Origin: a virus
Taxonomy: Duplodnaviria > Heunggongvirae > Uroviricota > Caudoviricetes
Strand: one strand, 5' to 3'
IMG/VR virus record: IMGVR_UViG_3300010282_000006
Coordinates: 10,315 to 74,314 of that record
DNA: 64,000 nucleotides
In this document: positions 16,051-58,752 of the stretch, piece by piece
Numbering within the stretch: position 1 is the first letter of the stretch
How the letters are laid out: each line of letters opens with the position of its first letter
Position numbers and translations under genes: made by a program
The notes under the pieces: generated by a model
Database searches by the model: none
The model's input: only the letters and a program-made list of their open reading frames with translations
What the model was told of the DNA's origin: nothing

Positions 16051-16340
16051 ACCGTCGTATTGCGCATCGTTGTCGGGCTGCGCCGACGACCAACAGCCTT
16101 AACAATGCCGTCGTCGCGCATTTCGGTTAGGCGGGGCTTGACATAGTTTCGATCGGTGGATGGGATCGTTCCGTTTTTACACAGAACGTCGGTAATCTCC
16201 TCGGCGGTCATGCCATTTGGATCGCCGTTTTTCATCACCGCGAGGATGTTGTTTTTGCGGTTTATGCGCGCAGGCTTCACCGCATTAAATGCTTCACGTC
16301 GATTTTTGAGAGGGATGCTCAATTCGTTCGCTCCTTTCAA
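16029..16340 (-). CDS. hypothetical protein
   Basis: 103 aa ORF in operon. Confidence 0.35.
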   Translation of the reverse strand: MKGANELSIPLKNRREAFNAVKPARINRKNNILAVMKNGDPNGMTAEEITDVLCKNGTIPSTDRNYVKPRLTEMRDDGIVKAVGRRRSPTTMRNTTVWKAVGA

Positions 16341-16501
16341 TGATACAAACTCCGGTTTCTTGCGCAGTGATCGTCGGGCATATCATTCCGCCGCCCTGCA
16401 CTCTGCCGCGCCGCGTTTTACTGTTGGGATAGGACAGGTCGACAGCCCCCACGACACACTCGATAAATCCTTGCTTGGTGGCCTGCTTGATCTTTACCGT
16501 C

Positions 16502-17203
16502 TCAATACGCCATCACTCCTTTTGCGGGACACTGTACCATCCGGTCTTCGCACCCCCCCCCGCCTGCCTCTGCCTTGAGCGCGCGGGAGATTCCAGAACT
16601 GTCGTAGATGCGGTTTGCGTCGCCGTTGTAGTTGTTGATGTACCCGATCTGACGAAGCTCGGCGACGTCCGCCAACTCTCCGGTCATTTTTCTGCCATTC
16701 GTCGGATCAAGCCGCGTCAGCGCGGCCTCAAACGCTCCGATACCGGAGAAAAATGAACCGACCGTCATGTCTTCGAACAAATACGGCATCGCATCGTAGA
16801 GATTCGCCATGATCTGCTCAAGAACATCGACAACAATGCTGTTACCGGCCTGCTTGTAGAGCTGACTGCCGCATTTGTCCTTGCCGTGGTAAATCTTATC
16901 GTTCATAGCGTTCCTCGCTCTGTCAAACTGATCATCGAAGAAGCCCATCAAACGCCAGCACTCACGCTGCGTCAATTTGCGCACGCGAAAACCTGTGCGC
17001 TTTGCAATGCTTTCCATAGATCCCCTCTCTGTGTCATCCAGTTCACAAAAGCTCACCAGAACATTGTCCTTCTGCACGCCTGTCAGGGTGTTGGTAAAAT
17101 CGTCTCGGCGCAATTCGAGCCGTTGGATAATACCCCCCCCATCATCGTATCTGCCGCGTATTGCGGCTGGGAAGATCTGACTGTGGTATTCCATCCGTCT
17201 CAA
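16502..17203 (-). CDS. C5-cytosine DNA methyltransferase module: TRD-like segment, motif IX (RKLTQRECWRLMGF), motif X (QAGNSIVV) and then motif I (FFSGIGAFEAAL) at the C-terminal side; ORF-track start is TTG
   Basis: motif order read directly from translation; two G8/G9 tracts inside (17133-17140, 16553-16561). Confidence 0.6.
   Translation of the reverse strand: MRRMEYHSQIFPAAIRGRYDDGGGIIQRLELRRDDFTNTLTGVQKDNVLVSFCELDDTERGSMESIAKRTGFRVRKLTQRECWRLMGFFDDQFDRARNAMNDKIYHGKDKCGSQLYKQAGNSIVVDVLEQIMANLYDAMPYLFEDMTVGSFFSGIGAFEAALTRLDPTNGRKMTGELADVAELRQIGYINNYNGDANRIYDSSGISRALKAEAGGGGCEDRMVQCPAKGVMAY
16553..16561 (-). repeat. G9 homopolymer (coding strand) in C5-methyltransferase module
   Basis: counted in sequence. 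Confidence 0.9.
17133..17140 (-). repeat. G8 homopolymer (coding strand) in C5-methyltransferase module
   Basis: counted in sequence. Confidence 0.9.
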
Positions 17204-17392
17204 TCACTCCTGTCATCTGCTGATTTCCAAACCCCTTATAATCTCTCGCAAGGAGAGCCAAGGATACATCCGAATATCCTTCAAACCGCTCGCCCTTGTT
17301 GCTGAGTCTTGCGCCCGCCTTCGACGGAGAGCAAGTCCCAAGTGTGGCGGTCGATTGAACCGCGCCCTCCCGAACGGACGGTGTGGCTGATG

Positions 17393-18088
17393 TTACGGAG
17401 CGGTGGGGGGGGCGAAGCTGTCAGATGAAATCATCTCGGCGACCTTTTCGTCGGAGAGATAGTATTTCTCGTCAACGTCGTCCTCCAGCAAATCGCCCAA
17501 AGCGACTTTGAGCGGAACGGGATCGGGGAATTTGAACTTGCCGTTGTCCAGATCGCTTCGGACAATGACGCAGTAGACGCGCTCGCGGTTCTGCGGGATG
17601 CCATAGTTCTTCGCGTTGAGAACCTGCCAATAGACGTTGTAGCCGTACTCTTCCAGTTCCTTGACGAACATATCGAAGGTGTCGCGGAAGCGTGCGCCGG
17701 TGATATTCTTGACGTTCTCATAGATTGCGAAACGCGGCTTTTTCTCGCGCAAAAAGCGGAGCCATTCTACCAAGAGAGAAGAGCGGGTTTTCTCGATCTT
17801 CGTTGAGCCGCACTTCGGGCATTTGTCGCGCTGTGCGTAATGCGCTTCTAACGGGTTATAGGTGTGACCGCAGTTTTTACAAGTCCACGCAGCCCCCCCC
17901 TGCTTGCCCGCGATAGAAAAATCCTGACAAGGTGAACCGCCGAACATGGTGTTAAAATCAGGGACAACCTTTTCGTCCGCCTTGGTGATGTCACCAATAT
18001 TCAGAACCGGATCGACGCCGTGAATGGCGGCGTAACTCGTTGCGGCGTACTTGTCGAACTCGCAAAATAGGGCAGTTTTGTATTGCAT
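17393..18088 (-). CDS. C5-cytosine DNA methyltransferase catalytic core, motifs II-VIII (FCEFDKYA, GGSPCQDFS, ENV, QNRERV), lacking motif I, with an inserted CxxC..CxxC zinc ribbon
   Basis: 231 aa; RBS-preceded ATG directly after the upstream stop, so motif I is truly absent from the N-terminus; two 8-nt G/C tracts inside. Confidence 0.7.
   Translation of the reverse strand: MQYKTALFCEFDKYAATSYAAIHGVDPVLNIGDITKADEKVVPDFNTMFGGSPCQDFSIAGKQGGAAWTCKNCGHTYNPLEAHYAQRDKCPKCGSTKIEKTRSSLLVEWLRFLREKKPRFAIYENVKNITGARFRDTFDMFVKELEEYGYNVYWQVLNAKNYGIPQNRERVYCVIVRSDLDNGKFKFPDPVPLKVALGDLLEDDVDEKYYLSDEKVAEMISSDSFAPPTAP
17405..17412 (-). repeat. C8 homopolymer (coding strand) three codons before the stop of the C5-methyltransferase core ORF
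   Basis: counted in sequence. Confidence 0.9.
17893..17900 (-). repeat. G8 homopolymer (coding strand) in C5-methyltransferase core ORF
   Basis: counted in sequence. Confidence 0.9.
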
Positions 18089-18105
18089 GTAGATATCTCC
18101 TTAGA

Positions 18106-18426
18106 TCAGCTTTTCGTGATCGAGTTAATCGCTCTCTGCGCAGCACCAACGCCGTTGTCGCGGTCGTACAGCCGTTCATCAATCTCGTCGTCAGAATCCA
18201 ATGACACTTTCATAACTCTGCCTTTCAGATAGTCAAAGTACAGCATAGCGCCTTTTGATCTCATATCATCCAAAATAGCAGCCGCTTCACCCTCCGTCAT
18301 ATCGGCAGGGTCATATTGCAGGAATCCCATACCCTGCGGATGAGAGTGGTTATAGAGCGAAGCCAATACTGCAGCCTTGCTCAAACCTTTAATCAGAACC
18401 ATAGTTACCTCTCTTTCAAAGCACAC
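18106..18426 (-). CDS. hypothetical protein
   Basis: 106 aa. Confidence 0.4.
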   Translation of the reverse strand: MCFEREVTMVLIKGLSKAAVLASLYNHSHPQGMGFLQYDPADMTEGEAAAILDDMRSKGAMLYFDYLKGRVMKVSLDSDDEIDERLYDRDNGVGAAQRAINSITKS

Positions 18427-18959
18427 GACCGAAGGATTTCCTCTGTCAATACATCTGTGTCCTTTGTTGCTTCATAGAGCTTTTCTAAGTCGAACTCTTC
18501 TTCCTGAAACTTGAACTGAATCCATTTTGGCTCATGCTCGCGCCAGTCAAGCCACGATGCAGGATTTTCAATGCCAAGAACATCCTTGACCATTTGCAAA
18601 ATGCGTTCTCCTGCTTTTTTGGATTTTACGAACCCGCTTAGATCGTAGCCAATACCGCGAGGACGCCAAAATTCGCCACCGCCGTCAGGTCTCGGATCAG
18701 GCCACTCATACGGATGCCACGGCGTACCCTTTCGCGGATGCTCTTGAACTTTGGGATAATAGAAACCTCCGTTCCCATCATCAAATCCGATGTTGGATTG
18801 TATTACCCCGTCATCAAAAAATATCTGCTTTTGTCCACATTCTTCACATGTCCCGAAACCACCGATACCGAATCCTTGAAGAACGATGTCGCAACCGCAA
18901 TTAGCACACCCGTACTTCAAAAAATCGTGGTATCGGATTGCAATAACCTTGTTTTTCAT
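18405..18959 (-). CDS. hypothetical zinc-ribbon protein
   Basis: 184 aa with CANCGC...CEECG. Confidence 0.4.
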   Translation of the reverse strand: MKNKVIAIRYHDFLKYGCANCGCDIVLQGFGIGGFGTCEECGQKQIFFDDGVIQSNIGFDDGNGGFYYPKVQEHPRKGTPWHPYEWPDPRPDGGGEFWRPRGIGYDLSGFVKSKKAGERILQMVKDVLGIENPASWLDWREHEPKWIQFKFQEEEFDLEKLYEATKDTDVLTEEILRSCALKER

Positions 18960-18984
18960 GACGCAAACTCCTCATTTTCAATCG

Positions 18985-19489
18985 TTACAGCTTTCGCTCT
19001 ACTGTGACGATCGTGTCGTTCTTACTTCCGCCATGCGGAACCAGCAGCACTTCGAGCATTTCAAAACCGCGTGTCTTTCCGACGCCGTTGCTGTTCCAGC
19101 CGAAGCAAATAGCGATTCCACCCGGTTTTGTGATGCGCCGAATCTCATCCAAATGCTTCGCCCGCCATGATGACTGCGTGGTTTCCTGCGTTACCTCGTA
19201 TCCGAAGCCCTTGTAGCACTCTGCTACCTGACGTAATGAATACGGCGGGTCGTACAGAACGCAGTCAACGGTGCCGTTGCCAAACATCTTCAAAAAGTCC
19301 AGCGCGTCCATGTGATACATGCTGTCGCAGTCCGGATTGATGTCGTTTGTTACCGTTGCGATTTTCGCGTTGTTCGCAAACGGATCAACGACCACCCCCC
19401 CCCTCGACGTACCGGCCAAGAAGCTCGCGGATGGGCTTGATCGAGAAGGTGTATCGGTTTGGCATTGACCAAACTCTACTGAATTTCAT
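18985..19489 (-). CDS. small DPPY-type DNA methyltransferase; the authentic RBS+ATG (19489) is out of frame with the methyltransferase body across a G9 tract (currently OFF)
   Basis: body (ORF 18985..19419, TTG start, no RBS) has CVLYDPPYS; upstream AAGGAGA-N6-ATG encodes MKFSRVWSMPNRYTFSIKPIRELLGRYVE then hits the tract; G8 or G11 restores the frame. Confidence 0.6.
19395..19403 (-). repeat. G9 homopolymer (coding strand) between the ATG and the catalytic body of the small DPPY methyltransferase
   Basis: counted in sequence. Confidence 0.9.
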
Positions 19490-19507: not shown

Positions 19508-20350
19508 TCAAAATGAACACTCGCACGGTAGGTTGTCGTCGTCTTGAATCAACCGCCGCGCGGTCGCCCAAAATTTCTGAGGCGTTGTCTTTTCCGTGGG
19601 ACAAAGCGCCTTTTCTTTGAGCTTTGCAAATTCTTTCTCAAACTCACGAAGATACCCCTGCTTCAAAATGCTAAATCCGATCTGGTCTTCCGCCCATTTC
19701 GCCTTCTCCCAAACGTCAGGCCGCAGACAATAGACAATGAACCAATGCTGCTTTCCAGCTTTGAGACAGCCGATGCAGTTTGCGTGGTTGAATGTCGCGT
19801 AGGTGCTCGGTCTGCGGATTCCGACATCTTCGATTGCGTGGATCGTCCGAGCCTCCCATGTCAGCGGATACTCGGTCAGGTATCCCATTGCCGCCATGAT
19901 GCCCTTGCGCCGCGTGATACGGTTTTGCTCCGTGGCGTCAAATCCATAGACGACGGACACATCCTGCCGGATGCTCTGCGGCGACGTCGGATAGTTCTTG
20001 GACAGCCATTTTGTGAACGGCTTGGTTTTCAACGTCTCCGTGCAAAGCGCCTGCGATTGAACGCCGTATTTGAACGCTTTTCGCTCTACACAGACGTCAA
20101 ACTGGTCTTTTTCCAACCATCCCTGCATATTTGCGTATGTTATCGGTATGCCGAGATAATCGGCGACCTCTTTTTTGAAGCGTTTAATATCTTCGTGTTC
20201 CGTGCGCGGGCAAAGATCGTGGTTTAATAGGATCGTTTTGCCAGCGCCATAGCGCCTGACGGTCTCCACGGCGGCAAGCGCCGAGGAGTGACCGCCGGAA
20301 AAACAAACGATGTGAGTCATACCGACCACAACCATCACGGTTGAGGTCAA
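19508..20350 (-). CDS. PAPS reductase / DndC-like PP-loop ATP pyrophosphatase family protein
   Basis: 280 aa; PP-loop CFSGGHSS; C-terminal cysteine cluster. Confidence 0.65.
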   Translation of the reverse strand: MTSTVMVVVGMTHIVCFSGGHSSALAAVETVRRYGAGKTILLNHDLCPRTEHEDIKRFKKEVADYLGIPITYANMQGWLEKDQFDVCVERKAFKYGVQSQALCTETLKTKPFTKWLSKNYPTSPQSIRQDVSVVYGFDATEQNRITRRKGIMAAMGYLTEYPLTWEARTIHAIEDVGIRRPSTYATFNHANCIGCLKAGKQHWFIVYCLRPDVWEKAKWAEDQIGFSILKQGYLREFEKEFAKLKEKALCPTEKTTPQKFWATARRLIQDDDNLPCECSF

Positions 20351-20902: not shown

Positions 20903-21847
20903 TTAATGCGCGTTCCGGTCGCAGTTGTTCATCACCATGATGCGCTCCCAAGTCTGCTCGCCAAGCAAGCCCTTAAACTTTGCCTCTGTCTTCGGCGGAT
21001 GATTGGATTTTTTCACCACGAACGGAGCCATGTGCCAGCGAATCAGCAGCGCGACTCCAGTCGCCTCATCATCGCTCAGGTCGCCGGTGTAGCGAAAGCT
21101 CTCGTAAGCGCCGACACGCTCATGGTTGTAGTAGTGAGCCGTTTTGCACGGATTTCCTTTGGAATCAACAAACGACTTGGTGCGCTCCTTGCCAAAGTCG
21201 TGCAGCAGCATGGCGCGGAGAAGAACGTCGTCCGTATTGGGATAGTGCTCACGCATATAGCTCCAAGCCGCCATACAGTGCTGCCCGATGGTCAGCGTGT
21301 GGTGCGGATTGTCATGCGCAATCTGAGAGAGAAACCGCAGCTTGTCGTCGATACAGCCGGAAACAAACGTCGGCGCGTTACAGACCTCAATCTTATCCCA
21401 GCCCTCCGCGTACATCGGCACGTCAAACTTGCGGTACATCTGCGAGATTACATCATTCGGAACAACACGATTGCGATTCTCGTTATATCGCAGACACGCT
21501 TCAATCGGCGTCGCCATGAATACGCAAACCGTTCGCAAATCGGGGATGTGCAGTCCGCGCAGACTGTGGAGAAACGCGCGGCGGTGCTTATAGTGGATGT
21601 TGGTCGCGTCGTAAACAACGCTGTTGCCGCCGCGCAGATCATCAAAAATGCGCTGATGCAATGTCTTGAAGACAAGATCCTGCTGCGTCTGATCGTTCGC
21701 ATCACCCAAAAGCTCAGCACGAATTGCGTCGCTGGAGTGGACGACGACCTTTTCGGCAAACGGAAGCGCCTTAGATAGCTCCTTTGCCTTTGTGGTCTTG
21801 CCGCTGCCGGGAAGACCAACCATCATATAGAAGATTTGCGCCATCAC
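20903..21847 (-). CDS. P-loop polynucleotide kinase fused to HD-domain phosphohydrolase
   Basis: 314 aa; Walker A GLPGSGKTT at N-terminus; HD motif LLHDFGK in C-terminal half. Confidence 0.65.
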   Translation of the reverse strand: MMAQIFYMMVGLPGSGKTTKAKELSKALPFAEKVVVHSSDAIRAELLGDANDQTQQDLVFKTLHQRIFDDLRGGNSVVYDATNIHYKHRRAFLHSLRGLHIPDLRTVCVFMATPIEACLRYNENRNRVVPNDVISQMYRKFDVPMYAEGWDKIEVCNAPTFVSGCIDDKLRFLSQIAHDNPHHTLTIGQHCMAAWSYMREHYPNTDDVLLRAMLLHDFGKERTKSFVDSKGNPCKTAHYYNHERVGAYESFRYTGDLSDDEATGVALLIRWHMAPFVVKKSNHPPKTEAKFKGLLGEQTWERIMVMNNCDRNAH

Positions 21848-23586: not shown

Positions 23587-24152
23587 TACAAAGCACCGCC
23601 TTTACTGACAGAAACCATACAGGAGTCAATGAATGCGTGGCGACCGCCGTACTTTGCGGCGTTGACCTGCTGTGCTTTTGCAAGGCGGCTCATAGACGTA
23701 TTGTAGTGTTCATCGCAGACCTTGAAGCGCGTTCCGTAGGTTGTGAATCCTTCTTTCACCGGCTTTCCGCAGAAGAAACACAGCCCATATTGCATACGAC
23801 GCTGCGCATCGCCGGCGGAATAGCCGCGTTTCTTTTCGGCCTCAGCACGCTTGTGATTGCGGAAATATGCTCTGTGCTTGTCGCACATGGCATACGGCGA
23901 GCCTTTCGGCAGAGGTTTTCCGCAGCGAACGCACACATGATCGGCTCGTGATTTGGCGCGCTCTTCTTTTCTGCGCTTCTGACGATCGCTCTCCCCGCCG
24001 TTGTCGCGGTATTTCTGATTGTACGCTCTAAAACGTTCTGCGCACTCGAAGCAATACGATCGCCCGTTGAGCGTATATGCGTCCTGCTTATGGCAGTTTA
24101 CGCAGCGATGGAGAGCCTTGTAGTAGCGGTAGTTTTCCGTACTGCTGCTCAT
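23586..24152 (-). CDS. Cys-rich zinc-finger protein
   Basis: 188 aa with multiple CxxC pairs. Confidence 0.4.
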   Translation of the reverse strand: MSSSTENYRYYKALHRCVNCHKQDAYTLNGRSYCFECAERFRAYNQKYRDNGGESDRQKRRKEERAKSRADHVCVRCGKPLPKGSPYAMCDKHRAYFRNHKRAEAEKKRGYSAGDAQRRMQYGLCFFCGKPVKEGFTTYGTRFKVCDEHYNTSMSRLAKAQQVNAAKYGGRHAFIDSCMVSVSKGGAL

Positions 24153-25597
24153 CCCGCCATCGCGTCTTCCGCCGCCAGCTCTTCCGCCTCTTCCATATCA
24201 GGGGCGGCCGCCGTTTCCTTGATGAGACCTTCGAGAACCTTGAAGGAGAAGTTCTTAATCTTGTACGCCGCGAACTTCGGCCGATCCACGATGCGGACGA
24301 CCACACCCTCACGAACATGCGTCTTTCCGACCGGATCAACGCCGTCGTAGAACAGCTCCGCCATCGCCTTGACATACTCACCGGCGGAACTGAGGTGCAG
24401 CAGGTTGCCGTCCCCATCCATGAACGAATATCCACCATTGGCGTCCGGCTCCGGAATGATGAAGCGCTTGAACATCTGCACGCACTTGACGCCCATTTGC
24501 TTGCAACGATAGCGAACAAAGTCGGGCGGATACTCCACCACATCGCCGTCCTCGTTCGTCATGGTCATACGGTAGACGAACAGATCGGACTGCGGCACAG
24601 ACATATCAATGGAAAACGCGCCGTGATCGTCAGATCCGTGCATGAGCTTCTTGCCAGTCGGGGCGCATCCATAGGAGAAAACAGTTCTCGCACCGTACTG
24701 GCTGGAAAAAGTCTTGTCGCCGTTGGCGTTGTCGACCTTCTTGTTGTCCACGCTTGCCATGATCGGCGTGCCGTCCATCGTGAAGCCAACGACCTCGTAA
24801 TAGACCGTCTCTCCCTTGAACAGCTTTCCCTCAAACGCCTTGCTGTGCTCCTCGCGGAAGGTGTTGTTGCCGTACCAACCGCCCTCGTAGCTTTCGAGAA
24901 CCGTGCGGCGCGTGCCGGAAACGTATCCCCAATCGTAGACGGGGGTTCCGTCGCGTCGCAGGAGCTTGTCAAGCAGCGTGCGCTTGAAGCCCTTGAAAAC
25001 AGGGAGATAGCCGGTGCGCTGGCTCGTTCCGTGCATTTTGAGAGTGATCTCAATGAGATCGCCGGGGTAGAACGCCGAAAGGTTGTAAGCAAGCTGTTCC
25101 GTGTCGGCGTGCTCGGCAAAGAGCGGAGCAATCGGCGCGCGCTTCTTGCGAGTACGATTGCCGCCTCTTCCTGTGTTATGACCGGAACGGTTGGCGCGGG
25201 GGATGTACTTCTCGCAGATGGTCACGCCGTTCAGCATGGTGATCCGGTCGCCCTCCTTGAGCTTCGAGACATCCGTGAAGCTCGACAGGCTGGAAAGCGG
25301 CATGAACAGACCGTCGCTCTTTTCTCCGCGCAGCTTGAGCGCCTTGATGTTGCGCTTTTCGGGATCGAGATAGCCGCCTGCAGGCTTTCCGTTCTCGTCC
25401 TTGCGGCGAAGAAGGTCGTTCTTGACGGCGTATTCCATGCCGAGCTTTCCATCGACAGGGAAATACACGCCGAGGGCGTTCGGCTCCGTTTTCAGATCGA
25501 CGATCACTGTGTTGCCAAAGCACTCGCCACACAGCAGACGATCCGCATTGCTGTGCTTTCGCAGGTTTTCGATGCGCGTGATGTAACCGCAGTACAT
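24149..25597 (-). CDS. putative ATP-dependent RNA ligase (Rnl5/DraRnl-like: N-terminal Myf-type OB domain plus nucleotidyltransferase domain with KxHG motif)
   Basis: 482 aa; HSNADRLLCGECFG (tRNA-binding OB-like), ITLKMHGTS (ligase motif I variant). Confidence 0.55.
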   Translation of the reverse strand: MYCGYITRIENLRKHSNADRLLCGECFGNTVIVDLKTEPNALGVYFPVDGKLGMEYAVKNDLLRRKDENGKPAGGYLDPEKRNIKALKLRGEKSDGLFMPLSSLSSFTDVSKLKEGDRITMLNGVTICEKYIPRANRSGHNTGRGGNRTRKKRAPIAPLFAEHADTEQLAYNLSAFYPGDLIEITLKMHGTSQRTGYLPVFKGFKRTLLDKLLRRDGTPVYDWGYVSGTRRTVLESYEGGWYGNNTFREEHSKAFEGKLFKGETVYYEVVGFTMDGTPIMASVDNKKVDNANGDKTFSSQYGARTVFSYGCAPTGKKLMHGSDDHGAFSIDMSVPQSDLFVYRMTMTNEDGDVVEYPPDFVRYRCKQMGVKCVQMFKRFIIPEPDANGGYSFMDGDGNLLHLSSAGEYVKAMAELFYDGVDPVGKTHVREGVVVRIVDRPKFAAYKIKNFSFKVLEGLIKETAAAPDMEEAEELAAEDAMAG

Positions 25598-28994: not shown

Positions 28995-30161
28995 TTAGGG
29001 AAACAAGTTATCTACAAACCGATCCATGTCGGTCGTCAGCTTGTAACAGTTGCCATGAGAGGCATGGTTTTTCCAAGAGTTGTATTTTTCGTCAAATTTT
29101 TCGCGCGTCATTTTGCCGGACAGCACCAGCTTCGCGTCCTTTCGTAGTCTCTTTTTGATCTGGCGCTTGTTGTCGCCGGTCAACCTCCGAATGACCTTGC
29201 CGTCCTCGGTAAGATAGCTGTGGAACCCAAGAAAACGGACGCCCTTTCGCATTGGCACGATCTCCGTCTTGCTGTTGAGCGTCAGACGAAGCTCTGATAA
29301 ATACGCTTCGATCTTCTTCTTGCAATCCTTCAAATAATTCTTATCGTCGGAGAGCAAATAGAAGTCGTCCGCATATCGGCCGTACCACACACAGCCAAGG
29401 TCTTCCGTAACGTAGTGATCGAGGCCGTCAAGAAACATCAGCGCAAATACCTGACTGCACTGATTGCCAAGCGGCAACCCGAGACCATCCGTGCTGTCTA
29501 TCAGAAGATTGCAAATCCATCGAATACCATCGTCGTCGAAGTAGCGGCGAACGCAGGCTTTCATCAGGTCGTGGTCGATGCTGTAAAAGAACTTGGTAAT
29601 GTCGCATTTGAGAATGTATCCGCCGCTTCCGTGCTTCGCGTAGAAATCCAGCAGGTTTTCCGAAAGTCGATCCAGCCCGAACAAGGTTCCCTTGCCTGCC
29701 TGACCGGCGTAGTTGTCGAGAACGAAACAGCTTTGCAGCCTCGGCAGCAACACGCAGTCGCACAGGCAATGCTGGAGAACCTTATCGCGGAACGTACCTG
29801 ACTTGACGATCCTTCTTTTCGGCTCGGAAACAACAAACGCGGTGTACGCTCCGACGCGGTATGTTCGCTCCTCCAACTGGCGCTTCATCACGACCAGATT
29901 TTCAAGAGCCAACACGCTGAACCGCTGTGCGCTGCGCTTCTTTCCCTTGCCTTTGCGAGCGACCTGATAGGAACTAAACAGATTTTCAAAGCTGGTCAGC
30001 TTCTCAAAGTCGCTCACGGCTTTTGTATTTGTCCCGCCGACGGCGAGAGAGGTTGTGTACTCTTTTGATAGTATGGCGCACTCCTTGTAGCTGTCTAAGC
30101 AGCTTATAGACCTCGCAAATCCACCAGAACGGGCGAACGTCGTTGCTGTAGTCGCAGTCAT
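28995..30161 (-). CDS. diversity-generating retroelement reverse transcriptase
   Basis: 388 aa; RT motifs incl. YADDF and the DGR-diagnostic LGNQCSQ (in place of QGxxxSP); ATG lies inside the template repeat. Confidence 0.85.
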   Translation of the reverse strand: MTATTATTFARSGGFARSISCLDSYKECAILSKEYTTSLAVGGTNTKAVSDFEKLTSFENLFSSYQVARKGKGKKRSAQRFSVLALENLVVMKRQLEERTYRVGAYTAFVVSEPKRRIVKSGTFRDKVLQHCLCDCVLLPRLQSCFVLDNYAGQAGKGTLFGLDRLSENLLDFYAKHGSGGYILKCDITKFFYSIDHDLMKACVRRYFDDDGIRWICNLLIDSTDGLGLPLGNQCSQVFALMFLDGLDHYVTEDLGCVWYGRYADDFYLLSDDKNYLKDCKKKIEAYLSELRLTLNSKTEIVPMRKGVRFLGFHSYLTEDGKVIRRLTGDNKRQIKKRLRKDAKLVLSGKMTREKFDEKYNSWKNHASHGNCYKLTTDMDRFVDNLFP

Positions 30162-30207
30162 TCCAGTTCAGAATGCCATTGGAGTTGACGTAGCAGACGT
30201 TGCGAGC
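30128..30207 (-). repeat. DGR template repeat (TR), ~80 nt
   Basis: near-identical to two variable regions; differences are confined almost entirely to TR adenines (coding strand). Confidence 0.8.
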
Positions 30208-30238
30208 ATCAGCACACAGCCTGAAGGTCGTCGTCAAG

Positions 30239-30607
30239 TCAGGTCTTCCGCCAAGCGAGTGTCATATATTTGACATCGTGGGCTAAGGCAGACCACGATT
30301 CGCCTGTTGCGGCGCTGATCAGATGAGCGTGGAGGCTGTATTTCACAAGACTTAGGAATTTATTGCAGTTCGTAACCGCGCTTGTCTGGAAATCAAAGCG
30401 TTTTTGCCGCTGTGAGGATGAATCTGTCCGAAAGGAATTGGCATCCATCACATTGCTGTGGATGTTCAGCGCGTATGTTTGAAGCTGGTCGGCCAGCCGA
30501 CGGAACTTTACCGGATAATGCTGTCGGCTGGTCGTCAGATCAAACACGCTGAAAAGAAGCTCCTCTGCTTTGTCTCCTATGTCAAACTTAACCTCTTCGC
30601 TCATCAC
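30239..30607 (-). CDS. avd: Avd-like accessory variability determinant
   Basis: 122 aa basic helical protein between target gene and TR/RT, the canonical position. Confidence 0.6.
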   Translation of the reverse strand: MMSEEVKFDIGDKAEELLFSVFDLTTSRQHYPVKFRRLADQLQTYALNIHSNVMDANSFRTDSSSQRQKRFDFQTSAVTNCNKFLSLVKYSLHAHLISAATGESWSALAHDVKYMTLAWRKT

Positions 30608-30613
30608 AAGACA

Positions 30614-31225
30614 TCAAGATACGAAGATGGAAGAATCCAAGATACAAAACGGGCGAACGTGGCGGCTGCAGTCGCAGCCATTCCAGAACAGAATGCCATA
30701 GGAGCTGACGAAGCAGACGAGGCGAGTGTAGCTGGTACTCTCGTCGAATGTTACGCGCGTGGCAGTCCACCACGGTGAACCCATCTTGGGAAGATACTCG
30801 CGATAGCGGCGGTAGAGATCGGTCGTGAGCAAGGAAATATTGTCACGGACGCTGAACGACTTACCCGTACCGTCGTCTGCGACGAGCTTGACGGTGTGCT
30901 CCACGATGTTGCTTGCGCCAACCGCCTTGGAAAGCTCCTTATAGAAGGTATCGTTGAGATAGCGGCGCACGTCGCTCTTTGCGTAGTCGCCGCCACCGCC
31001 GTATTCCATCGTCTTGACAGAATCCTTGGCGAGAACCGCCGTAGTGGTCGCGCTGTGCTCCAGAACGTAGAACTCGCGGCTGCCGATTTTCACAACGGAG
31101 CCCGCCTTGATCTCGCCGAGCGTGCGGCGAGGCTGCTCAGACAGGGTAACGATGATGTTACCGTTGCCCTGCTCCTTGACGTCGACCTTGACGTTGGGGC
31201 ATTCGTTTTTGATCTCGATCTGCAT
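30614..31225 (-). CDS. DGR target protein 1 with C-terminal variable region (CLec/DUF1566-like)
   Basis: 203 aa; C-terminal ...WWTATRVTFDESTSYTRLVCFVSSYGILFWNGCDCSRHVRPF encoded by VR1. Confidence 0.8.
   Translation of the reverse strand: MQIEIKNECPNVKVDVKEQGNGNIIVTLSEQPRRTLGEIKAGSVVKIGSREFYVLEHSATTTAVLAKDSVKTMEYGGGGDYAKSDVRRYLNDTFYKELSKAVGASNIVEHTVKLVADDGTGKSFSVRDNISLLTTDLYRRYREYLPKMGSPWWTATRVTFDESTSYTRLVCFVSSYGILFWNGCDCSRHVRPFCILDSSIFVS
30648..30726 (-). repeat. DGR variable region VR1
   Basis: 12 mismatches to TR over 79 nt, 11 at TR adenines, 1 G/C mismatch. Confidence 0.8.
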
Positions 31226-34651: not shown

Positions 34652-35050
34652 ATGGACTCCACAATTTATATCCGCACAAAAGAGCTGTGCGATGAACGCG
34701 GAATGTCGATCACCAGACTTGAGGGCGAGCTTGGACTTGGACAATATGCGATCGGTCGGCTCAAATCCTCATCCAATCCGACGGTCGAAACGGCCATGAA
34801 GATCGCCGGATACTTCGGCGTTTCCGTCGATTATCTGATCGGAGCCTCCGACATTCGCACCAAGGCAGACGATCTGGTGCATGACAACGACTTTGTATCG
34901 CTCCAGCGCGCACGCGAGAGGATGACGGATGTTGACCGAGACCGCATGATGGCGATGCTCCAAATTGCTTTTAACAAAGCGTTCGGAGATGAGACCGCCA
35001 GCGTTGAGCAGTATATCCTGAATGTCGAACGTGAGGAGAAGAAGGAGTGA
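34652..35050 (+). CDS. XRE-family HTH transcriptional regulator (ImmR-like)
   Basis: 132 aa; N-terminal HTH_XRE; paired with ImmA-like peptidase. Confidence 0.8.
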   Translation: MDSTIYIRTKELCDERGMSITRLEGELGLGQYAIGRLKSSSNPTVETAMKIAGYFGVSVDYLIGASDIRTKADDLVHDNDFVSLQRARERMTDVDRDRMMAMLQIAFNKAFGDETASVEQYILNVEREEKKE

Positions 35051-35051
35051 C

Positions 35052-35759
35052 ATGATCCGATACGGGAAAATCCACGATGAGGTGTTGAAGCTCTACTGCA
35101 ACATGAATCCGCTGGTGTTTCCGATCCAACCGGAGGAAGCTATGCGAGCCGTTCCAAATTGCAGGATGATGACATACCGCGAGTTTTCCGCACTCAACAA
35201 CTGTTCCGTAGAGGAGACGGTGCGGCTTTGCAGCAGCAAATCAGGCTGCACGCAATATGACGTGCTCCGCAATCGCCATCTTATCCTGTGGAACGACGAT
35301 CCATCCGATAATAATGTGCTTGGTCGCCAGAGGTGGACGAAGGCGCACGAGCTGGGGCATGTGGTTTTGCGGCATCTTCCGCAAACCGCGCGTTCCAGAA
35401 GCGAACCGTCAGGATTTTATGCCGAGCACTGCAAGGAATACGAGGACGAGGCGGATCTGTTCGCGTCGATCCTCCTTTGCCCGTGGCCTCTCTTTTTCCA
35501 ACTGCACATTCATTCCGCCGCCGACGTCGCCAATGTGTTTGGCCTTTCCACAGAGGCTTCCAATGTGCGCTGGGCGGATTATCTGCGGTGGAGAAGCTGC
35601 AAACGCAATGACAAAGAGCTGCGCTGGGCTGGATGGATGGAAGGACTGTATCAGCTTCGTAAAAAATCCGGTATGGTGGAGCACCCACCGTTCCGCTACG
35701 GAGGAAGAAGATACAGCGGCATCGACGTATGGCCGGAAAAGGCTTCAGGCGATCCCTAA
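35052..35759 (+). CDS. ImmA/IrrE-family zinc metallopeptidase (HEXXH)
   Basis: HELGHVVLRH motif; start ATG overlapping immR stop. Confidence 0.75.
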   Translation: MIRYGKIHDEVLKLYCNMNPLVFPIQPEEAMRAVPNCRMMTYREFSALNNCSVEETVRLCSSKSGCTQYDVLRNRHLILWNDDPSDNNVLGRQRWTKAHELGHVVLRHLPQTARSRSEPSGFYAEHCKEYEDEADLFASILLCPWPLFFQLHIHSAADVANVFGLSTEASNVRWADYLRWRSCKRNDKELRWAGWMEGLYQLRKKSGMVEHPPFRYGGRRYSGIDVWPEKASGDP

Positions 35760-35790
35760 CATGGGGTCGCCTGTTTTTTTTGCGCAGCCT
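35749..35790 (+). terminator. intrinsic terminator (hairpin GGCGATCCC...GGGGTCGCC followed by T8)
   Basis: read from sequence. Confidence 0.55.
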
Positions 35791-35813
35791 GTTTTTTTTG
35801 AGCGGTTCCAAAA

Positions 35814-39329: not shown

Positions 39330-41273
39330 TTACGCGGTGAGGAGAGGCATAGTCGATGCGGGGGAGATGATGTAGTTCTGCGGCGCGCGCATGACCTCCT
39401 CGTACTCCTCGCGGCCTTGGAACTCATCGACCACGGCGCGGGATTCCGCGTCCATATCGTTGTAGTGCTTCTTTCCATAATCCGGCGGGAGCCACTGGCG
39501 GCTGCGCGCTGCAAAGATGTTGAGGCGGTCAATCAGGCGCTTCGCGTCGTCGTCAAACTTGATGTGGCAGGTTCCCTTCTTGTAGAACGTGGCGGTGAAG
39601 TATTTGAAGTTCATCGTCGTGCGCTGGCACTGTTCCGCAACATGCGCCACGGTGTAGGGGTCGATGGAGGAGCCGGTTTCGCCGCGATCCAGATAGTTCA
39701 AAGCGCGTTCGATGTCCGCGATTTTGCCGGAGAACTCGCGCGCTTCCAATTTCTTCTTGCCGTCATATTTCGTGTAGAATCCGTTGATGGGGAGAATGAC
39801 CTTCATACCGACCTTGTGCGCCTTATTCGTCGCCCACCCACTATAGTAGTGGATGTTCTTGGCGCATTCCGGATACCATGCGTGTTCGGCGGACAGCTCA
39901 TCGAAGAGCTTGTAGATCGCATCCTCCACGCCACGCGAGAGACGCGCGGAGATTTCCAGCATGACCTGCTGAATGTTGTAACGCGAGAAGTCGTAGTCCT
40001 TCATCTCGCTGATTTTGTTGTAATACTCATTATGGAGATCGGAGGTCATCTTTTCCGTCAGTTCGCGGCGGGAAAGCAGCAGATTCCAATACCTTGAGCG
40101 CAAACCGCGCAGATAGGAGTTGATCGTGTCGCTCGTCGCATGGTCGCACTTGTGGTCGTTCACGGAGAGCTGGATGAGCGGCTGGCTGTAAGTATCGGAG
40201 CCGTTCATAATGTACGGCGCAAGCGCGTTATACTCGCGCATGAGAGCGACGCCGGCCTTTGCCTCCATGTTGTAGCCGGAAACAAGCTGATCCATCCAGT
40301 CACCGGCGACCAGATCGGTGACTCCTGCGCTGCGTTCCTCCTCCATCTCAGCGGCGCGTTTGAGACCTTCCAGAATGTTCGACTTACGTTCCGGCTCCGG
40401 AATCCTCAGATAGACGATTGCGACCTCGACGTCGCTCTGACGCTCGGCATGTGAGAAAGCACCGGAAACAAACTCAATCTTGGCCTCGTAACGGGCGAGT
40501 TGCTCCTGCAGCACCTTCCGTCGCTGCGTGTACGGGTTGCGGATGGTCTCTGCATTGAGCAGAGATACGATTTGTCCGCCCGCGTCCTTCTGCATGGAGA
40601 TCGCCTTGAGTAGGTGTTCGTCTCCATTGGAAAACGGCGGATTCATCAGGATCACGTCGTAGTGCTTCATGGTGAAGTAGGTGAGAAAGTCGTCCGACAC
40701 GACACGATAGCCCTTGCCTTTGAGGATCATCTGAAGATTGGCGTCGCGTTCGATGCAGTCCACTCGTTCCATAAAGAAATCGTCCCGATAGTTCCCGTGC
40801 TTGTGGTTGAAGCACTTGAGCGCACAGGAAATCAAGTCGCCCTTTCCGGCGGACGGTTCCAACATTGTATCCGCGTACCGCCAGTCGATCAGATTGACCA
40901 TGCGACCGGCAAGCGCCGTCGGTGTCGGAAAAAACTCTGCATCAGGGGAGGCTGGAAGTGCTCGGACATCCGCGTGCAGCACTTCTGCTCTGTGCTCTGC
41001 ATACCAGTCAGCGAAAATTCTCTTGCCCTCTGCGACGGTTTTGCAGCGACCGATGGGGTTTGTGCGAAAATAGTTGCCGGTGCGCTCGGTGTAGTATTCC
41101 ACATCCATCGGCTTATCCTTATTCCAATGCTCGACCGCAGGCGTGCCGTCCATATAGAAGATCCCGCGAATCACGCCGACCGGCTGCGCGTCCTTGTGGA
41201 TGATGACGCTGCGCTGATAGGCCGGTTTCTCCCATCTGGTACAGCGCTCGGTTTTTTCGGTGTAGTAAAACAT
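39330..41273 (-). CDS. N6-adenine DNA methyltransferase, gamma-class (FPTP motif X, EPSAGKG motif I, NPPF motif IV) with ~400-aa C-terminal domain of unknown function
   Basis: 648 aa after trimming to RBS-preceded MFYYTEK. Confidence 0.75.
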   Translation of the reverse strand: MFYYTEKTERCTRWEKPAYQRSVIIHKDAQPVGVIRGIFYMDGTPAVEHWNKDKPMDVEYYTERTGNYFRTNPIGRCKTVAEGKRIFADWYAEHRAEVLHADVRALPASPDAEFFPTPTALAGRMVNLIDWRYADTMLEPSAGKGDLISCALKCFNHKHGNYRDDFFMERVDCIERDANLQMILKGKGYRVVSDDFLTYFTMKHYDVILMNPPFSNGDEHLLKAISMQKDAGGQIVSLLNAETIRNPYTQRRKVLQEQLARYEAKIEFVSGAFSHAERQSDVEVAIVYLRIPEPERKSNILEGLKRAAEMEEERSAGVTDLVAGDWMDQLVSGYNMEAKAGVALMREYNALAPYIMNGSDTYSQPLIQLSVNDHKCDHATSDTINSYLRGLRSRYWNLLLSRRELTEKMTSDLHNEYYNKISEMKDYDFSRYNIQQVMLEISARLSRGVEDAIYKLFDELSAEHAWYPECAKNIHYYSGWATNKAHKVGMKVILPINGFYTKYDGKKKLEAREFSGKIADIERALNYLDRGETGSSIDPYTVAHVAEQCQRTTMNFKYFTATFYKKGTCHIKFDDDAKRLIDRLNIFAARSRQWLPPDYGKKHYNDMDAESRAVVDEFQGREEYEEVMRAPQNYIISPASTMPLLTA

Positions 41274-41552
41274 TCCGTTCCTCCTTTTCAAATTTGCTGC
41301 TTGCACTCTTACCAGAGAACGATTTGTGAATTTGCTAACTGAACAAAAAAAGACGCCGGATTGCTCCGGCGTCTCACAATTTACAGCAGCTCTACACAGG
41401 TCAGATAGTCATATTCGTCTCCATCAACGGATACGGTGTCGCCGCTCTCAAAGAGGTTTTGCAGCCACTCGTCGTATGCCTCCGGGCTTCCGGCGTTCCA
41501 GCGCTTTTCGTCCAGCCACTCACGGAGCGCGCGGACGCTGGAGAACGTGTAG

Positions 41553-52758: not shown

Positions 52759-52886
52759 GTTGTGCTCCCTTCCGGCCTGCGGCCTTGTTCTGTGAATACT
52801 TGAGAATGATTTTCTGTTCTGCTAACCAAACGGCTGAATTTTTCCAAAAAAAAGAGACGGACATTGCTGCCCGCCTCCGCGTTCCG

Positions 52887-53719: not shown

Positions 53720-53892
53720 GGTTTCGCCCTCCGTTCCAAAAGTCGGTTTGTTCCTCCCGCTGATATATTAGAGCGTTTTCCGCGCCTGCTAACCGGTTTC
53801 AAAAAATATTTTCTTGTTCCATTTCGCGCGAAACATGAGAAGTGGCGGCGAAACAAAAAAAAGCGGCGGGATTGCTCCCGCCGCCCGTTCTG

Positions 53893-54114
53893 CTACTCTG
53901 CGTGAAACTCTCTTGTCGGCTGAATCGTAAATGGTACGCAAGAAACGATTTCGTCCAGCGCATCCTGCTCTTCATCCGACAAGACGCCTGTTCCATAACA
54001 TATTGCGACCTCCACGTCCTTTGTGTCGCTGAAAATGTTGATGATTTTGCCGTTTACAATGTCGATTGCAATTCTCATATTCAAATCCTCCGTTCCGTTT
54101 TTGTGATTCCTCAC
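53893..54114 (-). CDS. hypothetical protein
   Basis: 73 aa. Confidence 0.35.
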   Translation of the reverse strand: MRNHKNGTEDLNMRIAIDIVNGKIINIFSDTKDVEVAICYGTGVLSDEEQDALDEIVSCVPFTIQPTREFHAE

Positions 54115-54230
54115 ACTGTTATATGAGAAAGAATGCAGCGCTTGCTAACCAGTCTGCAAAAAAAATCAGTCGTTCCAAAAAAAATCGAAAGAGGCGGAGC
54201 GATCAAGCTCCGCCCGTTCCGTTACAGGGA

Positions 54231-57741: not shown

Positions 57742-57816
57742 AAAGCCAATGAGACAGGCGTGTTTTTTGCTTTTTCTAAAGTACGACATAAATCTATTTA
57801 CGGAAGGAGCAGCAAT

Positions 57817-58752
57817 ATGAACGAGCAGATAGACCTCTTCTCTGCGGCTGTATATGCTGAGCGCACTGCGGGACTGGCCGTATGCGGTGAACATGCCGTT
57901 GAGATCAGAGACGAATCGGAAATCGACGAATGGCGTGACAAAGCGATAGACTCCGCAACCTATCCGGGAACGACGATCACAACCAGAAACGGTAAGAAGG
58001 TCTCTGACAAGCTGCTGCTGTTCCCCGGCGTCGATCCTACGCTTGAAGCACACAGTAAAGGCTATCGACCCAACTACCGTAAAGGAGGAACACAGACTGT
58101 CTACCCCATCAAGAAATGGGATGAATTAGAACGTGTCGCTCTTTGGCTCTACGAGAACAAGGATCGCAAATACCTTCTTGGATTTATCCTTGGTATCAAC
58201 CTCGGATTGAGAGCAAACGAGCTTTTGAAGCTCAGGATGCTTGACGTCTATCTGCCTGACGGTACAATCCGCTACGTCGAAGATACGCAGGACACCAATG
58301 ACCGCATCAATATCTCTCAGAGCAAGACACACGGCAAGATCCGTACTGTCTATCTCAACACCGCTTGCGCATCTGCTTTGCACTGGTACTTTGGTGATCA
58401 TCCTTACGGATTGGATAAGAATAAACTGATTTTCTCCTCAAGAGAGGGAGGAGCTATCGAAGTCGACACCTTCCGCAAGGTACTGAAGGAAGCCTGCGAA
58501 GCCGTAGGCATTCGTCAGAACATCGGTACTCACACCATGCGGAAGACATGGGGATGGTGGCAGTACACTACCAACACCGGCAAGCAGTACGGTGATGTCA
58601 CACAGCTCCAACGGTTGTACGGACATGAAAGCCCGATGACGACCTTGCGGTATATCGGTGTGATGGATGAAGAGGATAAGGCTCTCTATCATTCGATGGT
58701 GCTTGCGGTTGCCGGAGACGTCATCGCTTATCGGGACGGAGAATACAAATAA
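57817..58752 (+). CDS. int: tyrosine recombinase / phage integrase
   Basis: 311 aa; C-terminal catalytic region with GTHTMRKTW and LYGHESPMTTLRYIGV (R..H..R..Y pattern); RBS GGAAGGAG. Confidence 0.8.
   Translation: MNEQIDLFSAAVYAERTAGLAVCGEHAVEIRDESEIDEWRDKAIDSATYPGTTITTRNGKKVSDKLLLFPGVDPTLEAHSKGYRPNYRKGGTQTVYPIKKWDELERVALWLYENKDRKYLLGFILGINLGLRANELLKLRMLDVYLPDGTIRYVEDTQDTNDRINISQSKTHGKIRTVYLNTACASALHWYFGDHPYGLDKNKLIFSSREGGAIEVDTFRKVLKEACEAVGIRQNIGTHTMRKTWGWWQYTTNTGKQYGDVTQLQRLYGHESPMTTLRYIGVMDEEDKALYHSMVLAVAGDVIAYRDGEYK

Follow-up and report, generated by a model that had tools for sequence, protein, structure and literature searches.

The length of a homopolymer can decide what a DNA-modification enzyme recognizes, as in the NgoAV hsdS gene of Neisseria gonorrhoeae, where it alters the translated recognition part of the protein and specificity changes as a result. 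C5 methyltransferases, in turn, exist as two-subunit enzymes, such as M.AquI and M.EcoHK31I, and in circularly permuted form, such as M.BssHII. In Campylobacter jejuni, the polyG-bearing Type IIG methyltransferase cj0031 is phase-variable (PMC4889913). Comparable loci have been described in phages: the A-run of T2/T4 agt is a contingency locus in a DNA-modification gene (2025 preprint on T-even contingency loci, PMC12633550), a polyG tract is attributed to the methylase gene of Bordetella phage BPP-1 (Liu 2004, as cited in PMC12633550), and literature citing Sorensen 2021 places polyG tracts in receptor-binding genes of Campylobacter Fletchervirus phages. Here we consider a 64-kb stretch of viral DNA with 53.7% GC (IMG/VR record IMGVR_UViG_3300010282_000006, positions 10,315 to 74,314; hereafter the window), in which five long G/C homopolymers interrupt two predicted DNA methyltransferase genes: a C5 methyltransferase locus and a small amino-methyltransferase gene. 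We consider it likely that these tracts are hypermutable contingency loci kept by selection, and that the two orphan methyltransferase genes holding them belong to a temperate phage that infects gut Clostridia resembling Oscillospiraceae.

An earlier note on this DNA had named five G/C runs of at least 8 nt as the only ones in the window, and a scan of the 64 kb reproduced exactly these coordinates, with none elsewhere. The sites are designated S0, S1, S2, S4 and S6 (S7 being a further tract, in TRD_H, of related loci), where TRD stands for target recognition domain and alpha and beta are the two open reading frames (ORFs) of the C5 locus. With coordinates in plus-strand letters, they are:

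16553 to 16561, minus strand: tract S6, C9 (coding strand G9), at the GGGG loop of TRD_F; three-state selector
17133 to 17140, minus strand: tract S4, C8 (coding strand G8), in RYDDGGGIIQRLE, near the start of beta (TRD_E); in frame, i.e., ON
17405 to 17412, minus strand: tract S2, G8 (coding strand C8); three-state selector
17893 to 17900, minus strand: tract S1, C8 (coding strand G8), in AGKQGGA, right after the catalytic PCQ motif
19395 to 19403, minus strand: tract S0, C9 (coding strand G9), encoding the junction of ...VEGG and VVVDPF, just ahead of motif I

The five tracts span 2.9 kb, and all of them lie inside methyltransferase genes, four in the C5 locus and one in the small DPPY gene, just as the note had stated; what it called the C5 locus consists of two ORFs (17393-18088 and 16502-17194) and of segments for recognition domains that lie out of frame. 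Its remark that no other coding run exceeds about 6 can be sharpened, as G/C runs of length 6 or 7 are wholly absent from the 64 kb and there are 12 of length 5. The A/T runs of 8 fall between likely genes (35774-35799, 52846-52853 and 53855-54184), also as described. Counting overlapping matches, the window holds seven G/C 8-mers, against a mean of 0.43 in dinucleotide-preserving shuffles, none of which reached seven in 100; extrapolation of the run-length decay of the window itself predicts about 0.02 runs of 8 or more, and the probability that all five would fall by chance inside 2.26 kb of methyltransferase sequence is about 5e-8. A chance origin of the cluster is excluded. Tract control does not extend to every methyltransferase gene of this phage, since a third methyltransferase-like gene (39330-41306; 658 aa, with a Dam N6-adenine domain and DUF4942) is free of homopolymer tracts. 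Outside the five tracts, G/C runs are strongly depleted, with two C5 homopolymer runs against about 55 expected from base composition, which suggests a general avoidance of slippage-prone G/C runs in this genome.

The modules of the C5 locus are arranged as follows:

17393 to 18088, minus strand: alpha ORF, 231 aa (Pfam PF00145, 2.5e-47; PHROG 116, positions 229-401)
17329 to 17397, minus strand: TRD_A segment RNISHTVRSGGRGSIDRHTWDLL, placed by the tblastn module map, in frame +1 relative to alpha, with a stop after 40 codons
17199 to 17306, minus strand: TRD_B segment LSNKGERFEGYSDVSLALLARDYKGFGNQQMTGVIE, in frame +2 relative to alpha, entered through an 86-codon open bridge frame
16502 to 17194, minus strand: beta ORF, 230 aa, with its own ATG (PF00145, 4e-10, profile positions 270-322; PHROG 116, positions 414-491)
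16709 to 16990, minus strand: motifs IX, X and I in that order, the circular-permutation junction
16565 to 16648, minus strand: TRD_F (IGYINNYNGDANRIYDSSGISRALKAEA...), an M.HhaI-like recognition domain after motif I
16336 to 16497, minus strand: TRD_H segment (VKIKQATKQGFIECVVGAVDLSYPNSKTRRGRVQGGG...), in which the run at 16446-16450 is only G5 (no switch) and which has no ATG here
16354 to 18964, minus strand: accessory cassette with the complete C5 locus and the small ORFs 18405-18959 and 18106-18426

Alpha carries a motif II-like FCEFDKYA, motif IV (GSPCQDF), a Zn-ribbon insert, motif VI (ENVKN) and motif VIII (QNRER), and has no motif I; it reads through the S1 G8 in frame and ends 3 codons past the S2 C8. 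Beta is composed of TRD_E, motif IX (RKLTQRECWRLMGF), motif X (YKQAGNSIVV), motif I (FFSGIGAFE), a linker and TRD_F, and aligns to residues 270-321 of M.HhaI. The two proteins cover consecutive parts of the single PHROG 116 profile. Motifs IV (PCQ), VI (ENV), VIII (QxRxR), IX, X (GNS) and I (FxGxG) are all readable across alpha and beta; however, the canonical order from I to X on one polypeptide is replaced by II to VIII, TRDs, IX, X and I, split over two ORFs. The enzyme is therefore predicted to be a split, circularly permuted variant of the C5 methyltransferase family PF00145. A fusion of alpha and beta in some tract state was considered and rejected, as each frame leaving S2 hits a stop before S4, and stop-codon reassignment for the single TGA between TRD_F and TRD_H was likewise discarded, because the other long ORFs are normal in the standard code. 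The whole 2.6-kb cassette is missing from a 97% identical phage (L185; SRR25030108) compared with the window by blastn, which makes the C5 locus accessory. The small ORFs of the cassette have a lower GC content (46-47%), and the one at 18405-18959 contains CxxC pairs.

The fifth tract lies in a separate gene:

18985 to 19489, minus strand: small amino-methyltransferase gene, with motif I (DPFA) and motif IV (DPPY) read from its translations

Its ORF begins with an ATG at 19489, and the S0 G9 leads to a stop after 34 codons (19489-19385), the C-terminal piece of 136 codons (19395-18985) following in a different frame. The present state is thus OFF, and G8 would restore a 167-aa protein. Precisely such an in-frame protein (P0019, 167 aa) is encoded by L185, where S0 is G8; in this phage and in four related contigs (L001 and L033-L035) the site is either G8 or G9. 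The protein matches PHROG 11619 ('DNA methyltransferase') with 2.5e-51, its match to Pfam N6_N4_Mtase is weak and below the family cut-off, and the nearest solved structure is the N4-cytosine methyltransferase 8s9m (5.5e-5). Both DPPY and VVDPFANN, a DPFxGSG-like AdoMet-binding motif, are present, with motif I before motif IV, the opposite of the order in the matched structures. It is predicted to be a beta-class-like amino (N4-C/N6-A) DNA methyltransferase. A PAPS-reductase-like gene (19508-20350) lies directly upstream. No nuclease family match indicating a cognate restriction endonuclease was found in the ORFs neighbouring the methyltransferases, and the partner ORFs vary between the window, L033 and L185; both methyltransferases look orphan.

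How the tracts act on the reading frames was deduced from a module map of the window and 46 relatives. The relatives share a fixed order, formed by core 1, the S1 G tract, core 2, the S2 C tract, TRD_A, TRD_B and more TRDs with their own tracts, followed by motifs IX-X-I, TRD_F, the S6 G tract, optional TRDs and a TRD_H split by the S7 G tract. Four of the sites (S0, S1, S4 and S7) are of the ON/OFF type by reading frame. At S1, G8 is ON (the state of the window and of 78 loci) and G7 or G9 leads to an early stop, with G6, G7 and G9 accounting for 32 OFF loci; at S7, 35 loci are G8 and ON and 34 have other lengths and are OFF; and at S4 the contigs L033-L035, among others, have G8 or G9. In the relatives TRD_H stands alone as an ORF of about 70 aa, equipped with an ATG, a Shine-Dalgarno sequence and a switch of G7-G9. 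An argument against technical error, built on a near-invariant S1 (38/47 G8) as opposed to varying S2, S6 and S7, was dropped as a main one when a second sample showed S1 OFF in 26/80.

The arrangement is, nevertheless, richer than ON/OFF, since two of the tracts choose between alternative recognition domains. In every mapped locus, the three frames leaving S2 lead, respectively, into TRD_A with a stop at 31-40 codons, into a bridge of 64-86 codons that enters TRD_B, and to a stop within 2-5 codons. C7 or C10 selects TRD_A, C6 or C9 selects TRD_B through an alternative frame of TRD_A, and C8 or C11, the state found here, gives no TRD. Of the 107 loci that bear the tract, 99 have the TRD in frame that is expected from the length of S2 modulo 3, all three states being common. 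In 43 of 45 loci no stop closes the bridge frame, where about 0.2 would be expected per independent lineage. Natural alpha products of 228-239, 257-258 and 293-294 aa fall in one protein cluster at 90% identity, and their ends match the three predicted S2 states. S6 behaves like S2: one frame completes TRD_F (GGGGAKTGWY...), another bridges to a different TRD in many relatives, and the third gives a short tail. In the window, G8 would complete TRD_F with GGGGAKTGWYSVPQKE and a stop, G7 or G10 would give VRRPDGTVSRKRSDGVLRR and a stop, and the G9 actually present gives CEDRMVQCPAKGVMAY and a stop, which truncates TRD_F; the spectrum in relatives is G7-G10. When TRD_F has the tail of the G8 state, it can be aligned to the M.HhaI recognition loops (residues 230-268). 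Further frame changes, from TRD_A to TRD_B and from there to beta, are tract-free and conserved between the window and its relatives. Two locked alleles were also encountered: in L005 (6660-6813), TRD_A and the C tract are deleted and TRD_B is fused in frame, and in L025 (around 6189) the S1 run is interrupted as GGAGGGG, which locks it ON.

The same three-frame layout, with useful products in two frames, would also fit a programmed recoding event at the RNA level. According to this explanation, transcriptional slippage or ribosomal frameshifting takes place at the tracts as fixed sites, every genome yields all isoforms at once, and changes of length in the DNA are incidental. Homopolymer runs are indeed known sites of RNA polymerase slippage, mostly when they consist of A or T; in bacteria, G/C runs, whose RNA:DNA hybrids are stable, lend themselves poorly to slippage. 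Moreover, a recoding site is expected at one optimal length, and the lengths in the DNA span 6-11 and differ in 47% of the comparisons between near-identical genomes. For these reasons we regard RNA-level recoding as quite unlikely to be the explanation of the tracts; slippage in the RNA may still be an extra layer on DNA-level switching.

The comparison just mentioned shows that the tracts are hypervariable. Contigs L001, L033, L034 and L035, from four metagenomes, are identical over up to 9.4 kb save at the tracts, and length varies at seven of the nine tracts among L033-L035. In 53 near-identical pairs, with SNPs at no more than 0.1% and 278 kb of alignment, tract length is unequal in 126 of 270 comparisons (the 47% given above), against 102 SNPs and 10 other indels in total; one of these pairs consists of an isolate genome and a viral contig. 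A single A/T-run indel was seen in these alignments, which held almost no A/T runs of 7 or more for comparison.

The tracts are also conserved. In over 100 related loci, with GC contents of 31-56%, they are found at identical codon positions. The closest approximately 35 viral contigs (core 80-93% identical, GC 42-56%) all have G/C runs of 7-10 at the same offsets, while distant low-GC relatives are mostly devoid of tracts. Tracts at the same sites are also found in at least 80 independent human-gut metagenome contigs, retrieved with the L033 protein as a query, in a goat-caecum metagenome-assembled genome of 31% GC, and in the cultured genomes of Dysosmobacter segnis BX15, Hominicoprocola fusiformis, Clostridiales bacterium CCNA10 (complete) and Oscillospiraceae bacterium 50-58. 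Taken over viral contigs, gut contigs and isolates, the runs at these offsets measure 7-11 letters. Pooled G/C runs of lengths 3 to 11 number 4966, 931, 123, 10, 49, 188, 116, 16 and 2, a bimodal spectrum, unlike that of pooled A/T runs, which decays smoothly and monotonically. Between lineages dS is 1.5-2, so that synonymous sites are saturated, and GGG is the rarest glycine codon (8-12% of glycine codons); under these circumstances the runs cannot persist passively and need selection. The modules are constrained as well, with dN/dS of 0.05-0.11 in each of them (TRD_A 0.11, TRD_B 0.07, TRD_F 0.09), and purifying selection holds for TRD_A, TRD_B, TRD_F and TRD_H, even though these are out of frame or separate in many genomes. 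To be kept in this condition, the out-of-frame modules must be expressed often enough. The tracts are, in short, runs inside ORFs far above background, polymorphic in near-identical genomes and under selection, with both states occurring.

Two explanations in which nothing is switched have to be set against this evidence. The first, already raised in the earlier note, is that the genes are intact and that homopolymer miscalls in sequencing or assembly create both the frameshifts and the length differences. Homopolymers are error-prone, many of the metagenome contigs have 1-5x coverage, and the frameshifts of the window sit exactly at the tracts. Error, however, cannot make runs that are conserved at orthologous codons despite saturated dS and the use of a rare codon, nor can it yield a conserved recognition domain in each alternative frame; the frame changes along TRD_A, TRD_B and beta are conserved and tract-free; and the tracts are present in isolate and complete genomes. 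We regard such an artefact as highly improbable, and the comparative evidence favours contingency control of phage-encoded DNA modification, the option that the note had placed first. It is supported by the conserved codons, the length polymorphism, the modulo-3 frame logic and purifying selection, together with the G8 allele that keeps the small methyltransferase in frame in a phage of 97% identity. The second explanation is decay, whereby a dispensable cassette would be breaking at mutational hot spots without any selected switching. The absence of the cassette from L185, the broken small methyltransferase and a TRD_H devoid of a start codon could be read in this way; yet dN/dS is low in all modules, the tracts are conserved rather than eroded, the bridges are kept open, and ON and OFF states are both common. 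That the locus is a set of decaying pseudogenes seems very unlikely indeed.

More distant relatives suggest how the layout arose. In the low-GC relative L036, a single 576-aa ORF contains the core, five tandem TRDs, motifs IX and X, and motif I last. The protein aligns to M.HhaI from residue 36 (motif II) to 318 (motif X), and its residues 478-565 align over the X-to-I junction of the circularly permuted plant enzymes DRM/DRM2, which identifies the family as circularly permuted multispecific C5 methyltransferases. Among 126 distant loci having both enzyme halves, 102 consist of a single uninterrupted ORF, 99 of them tract-free, and 24 are split between frames, 21 of them with tracts (Fisher p = 9e-18 for tract presence against split architecture). 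The 102 single-ORF relatives hold two to six of the same modules in frame between motifs VIII and IX (TRD_B in 12, TRD_H in 33-52), i.e., the tandem TRDs of a multispecific enzyme, whereas the window clade spreads its modules over frames and ORFs. As the same TRDs occur in frame in single-ORF enzymes, the tract-controlled layout looks to be derived from an ordinary multispecific enzyme. The position in these relatives is also the reason for calling TRD_B and TRD_E recognition domains, as searches of PDB sequences with both gave no meaningful match. A nucleotide search of 50,697 cultured-phage records returned no relatives, and at the protein level the closest enzymes of cultured phages are 35-41% identical, including the multispecific enzymes of Bacillus phages phi3T and SPbeta; the clade is consequently known only from metagenomes and prophages.

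Tracts are not confined to these sites in the wider group. Five relatives of 35% GC (L045, L047, L052, L055 and L068) have G7-G12 runs elsewhere in the recognition-domain region, e.g., in the GGG of TRD_A, so that the switching principle seems to have been placed at other sites in other lineages. Relatives of the window also carry conserved G/C tracts in genes for an RNA ligase, two PAPS-reductase-domain proteins, an NPPY N6-adenine methyltransferase and an MT-A70 methyltransferase (L003 at 269, 3901, 4235, 4645 and 5555; L033 at 8296). The tract-bearing RNA ligase of a relative is 69% identical to the product of window gene 24149-25597, which is itself tract-free. Judged by these predicted functions, the tracts extend to a broader range of genes for the modification and repair of nucleic acids.

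Taking the contingency reading as a basis, the following mechanism can be proposed. During replication, slipped-strand mispairing would add or remove one G/C and shift the reading frame; we infer slippage as the mutational mechanism, as well as its reversibility and rate. Changes at S0 would switch the small amino-methyltransferase, changes at S1 and S4 would switch the two C5 halves, and the length modulo 3 of S2 and S6 would decide which TRD joins the enzyme, or whether translation stops immediately. As a result, the sites that are methylated would differ from phage to phage within one population. The T2 agt contingency locus (PMC12633550) suggests, by analogy, that the benefit is probably a hedge against bacterial restriction defences, in that such a population would be bet-hedging both against restriction of unmethylated sites and against methylation-dependent restriction of methylated DNA. 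In the genome as sequenced, the small methyltransferase is predicted to be OFF, alpha ON without a TRD, and beta ON with TRD_E, with TRD_F incomplete and TRD_H probably silent. If alpha and beta assemble, this phage would methylate through TRD_E only, and single-base slips would add or remove other specificities.

The tract states of the window alone amount to 2 x 2 x 3 x 2 x 3 = 72 genotypes. It is conceivable, although we lean somewhat against it, that the frame selectors and the free-standing switchable TRD ORFs form a combinatorial specificity generator, some of the TRDs possibly being trans-acting specificity subunits. Were this so, a split C5 core would be re-equipped every few generations, and one gut prophage could give rise to dozens of methylation patterns.

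Several points weigh against the contingency reading. Alpha always ends at a stop ahead of beta, which means that activity needs the assembly of two subunits, for which M.AquI and M.EcoHK31I are precedents, and this assembly is presumed; the catalytic activity and the specificities of the methyltransferases are likewise predictions from sequence. In the window clade TRD_F and TRD_G come after motif I, and for TRD_F, TRD_G and TRD_H the location after motif I or in free-standing 70-aa ORFs has no precedent that we know of. The tract-length variation observed is variation between assemblies, and some of it, among low-coverage metagenome contigs, could be sequencing error. Two further contigs of the same phage, L102 and L103, have all five tract lengths identical to the window; they are maybe from the same sample, and they were retrieved by an exact protein spanning two tracts, a search biased toward the same lengths, although a tract-free neighbour protein led to the same contigs. 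Lastly, the occurrence of tracts in non-methyltransferase genes of relatives implies, from predicted gene functions, that the phenomenon is not methyltransferase-specific.

The genomic surroundings bear on what the switching might be for. The element is predicted to be a temperate phage or prophage, and relatives reside in Oscillospiraceae and Lachnospiraceae genomes. Features relevant to its lifestyle and to a second source of diversity are:

57760 to 58752: integrase
35022 to 35759: ImmA-like peptidase
28995 to 30161, minus strand: reverse transcriptase (PF00078)
30239 to 30607: Avd-like ORF
30125 to 30206: template repeat of the retroelement
30645 to 30726: variable repeat, at the 3' end of ORF 30614-31225

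The integrase, the ImmA-like peptidase and the prophage copies in isolates are all compatible with a role in lysogens, in which the same switch would make methylation variable and thereby reprogramme host or prophage gene expression, in the manner of phasevarions. The literature offers several bacteria in which phase-variable methyltransferases control regulons. On the other hand, multispecific C5 methyltransferases of phages are classically anti-restriction enzymes, and the genes of the window sit in a replication and DNA-modification module by ERF, SSB, primase and polymerase genes, as is typical of lytic expression. A phasevarion-like function is, in our opinion, unlikely as the main role, even if compatible with the counter-defence one; the system looks more like counter-defence bet-hedging. 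The replication module comprises ERF, SSB, a PDDEXK nuclease, a primase-helicase and DNA polymerase III alpha, in addition to an anaerobic ribonucleotide reductase. A gene for a kinase (AAA_33/KTI12) with an HD phosphatase (20903-21847) and an RNA ligase gene (24149-25597) resemble the tRNA-repair module that phages use against anticodon nucleases. The retroelement is a complete diversity-generating retroelement (28995-31225), whose template and variable repeats differ by 13 mismatches, 11 of them at template adenines. This gives the phage two distinct mechanisms of diversity, a combination also reported for Bordetella phage BPP-1.

If the contingency reading is true, temperate phages infecting Clostridia that abound in the human gut have a built-in means of generating epigenetic diversity at random, which would join the retroelement as a second such mechanism in one genome. 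It would explain how such phages meet the varied restriction and anti-methylation defences of their hosts. The locus would also be a natural example, open to testing, of a three-way genetic switch made from overlapping reading frames, with cultured lysogens at hand for the tests (Dysosmobacter segnis BX15, Hominicoprocola fusiformis CLA-AA-H269 and Clostridiales bacterium CCNA10). More generally, frameshifted methyltransferase genes in gut viromes are not to be dismissed as pseudogenes or assembly errors.

Set beside the known systems, the locus shares a part of its properties with each of them. Bacterial phase-variable methyltransferases (the Type III mod genes of Haemophilus, Neisseria and Helicobacter, and cj0031) also combine a tract inside the ORF, slippage and mixed methylation; here, in contrast, the enzymes are phage-borne, orphan, Type II-like C5 and amino methyltransferases with up to nine tracts per locus, two of which choose recognition domains instead of acting only as ON/OFF switches. 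In NgoAV hsdS, what changes is the truncation of a bacterial Type I S subunit, with no known choice among modules in overlapping frames. Phage contingency loci have in common with the window the hypermutable homopolymers and the mixed progeny, and agt and the BPP-1 methylase are DNA-modification genes too, BPP-1 also carrying, like the window phage, a diversity-generating retroelement; agt, the Fletchervirus genes and, as far as it is described in the citing source, the BPP-1 methylase are nonetheless single ON/OFF tracts, with no multispecific C5 enzyme, three-frame selection or clade-wide multi-tract layout. As regards the enzyme, M.Phi3TI, M.SPRI and M.SPBetaI of Bacillus phages are phage-encoded, 35-37% identical to alpha and provided with tandem TRDs between motifs VIII and IX, the layout of the tract-free relatives of the window enzyme; they are, however, single polypeptides with normal motif order and no tracts, as opposed to a C-terminal motif I, a split gene and three frames. 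M.AquI, M.EcoHK31I, M.BssHII and DRM2 have, as here, motifs that are divided or run from X to I, yet the window enzyme runs from motif II to a final motif I, whereas these break or permute elsewhere and are not known to be multispecific or tract-controlled. Searches of the literature yielded no account of this gut-phage clade, or of a phage C5 methyltransferase in which several tracts switch TRDs by frame selection. Contingency loci of phages and phase-variable methyltransferases were both known already; the choice of TRDs by reading frame in a C5 methyltransferase of a phage appears to be new.

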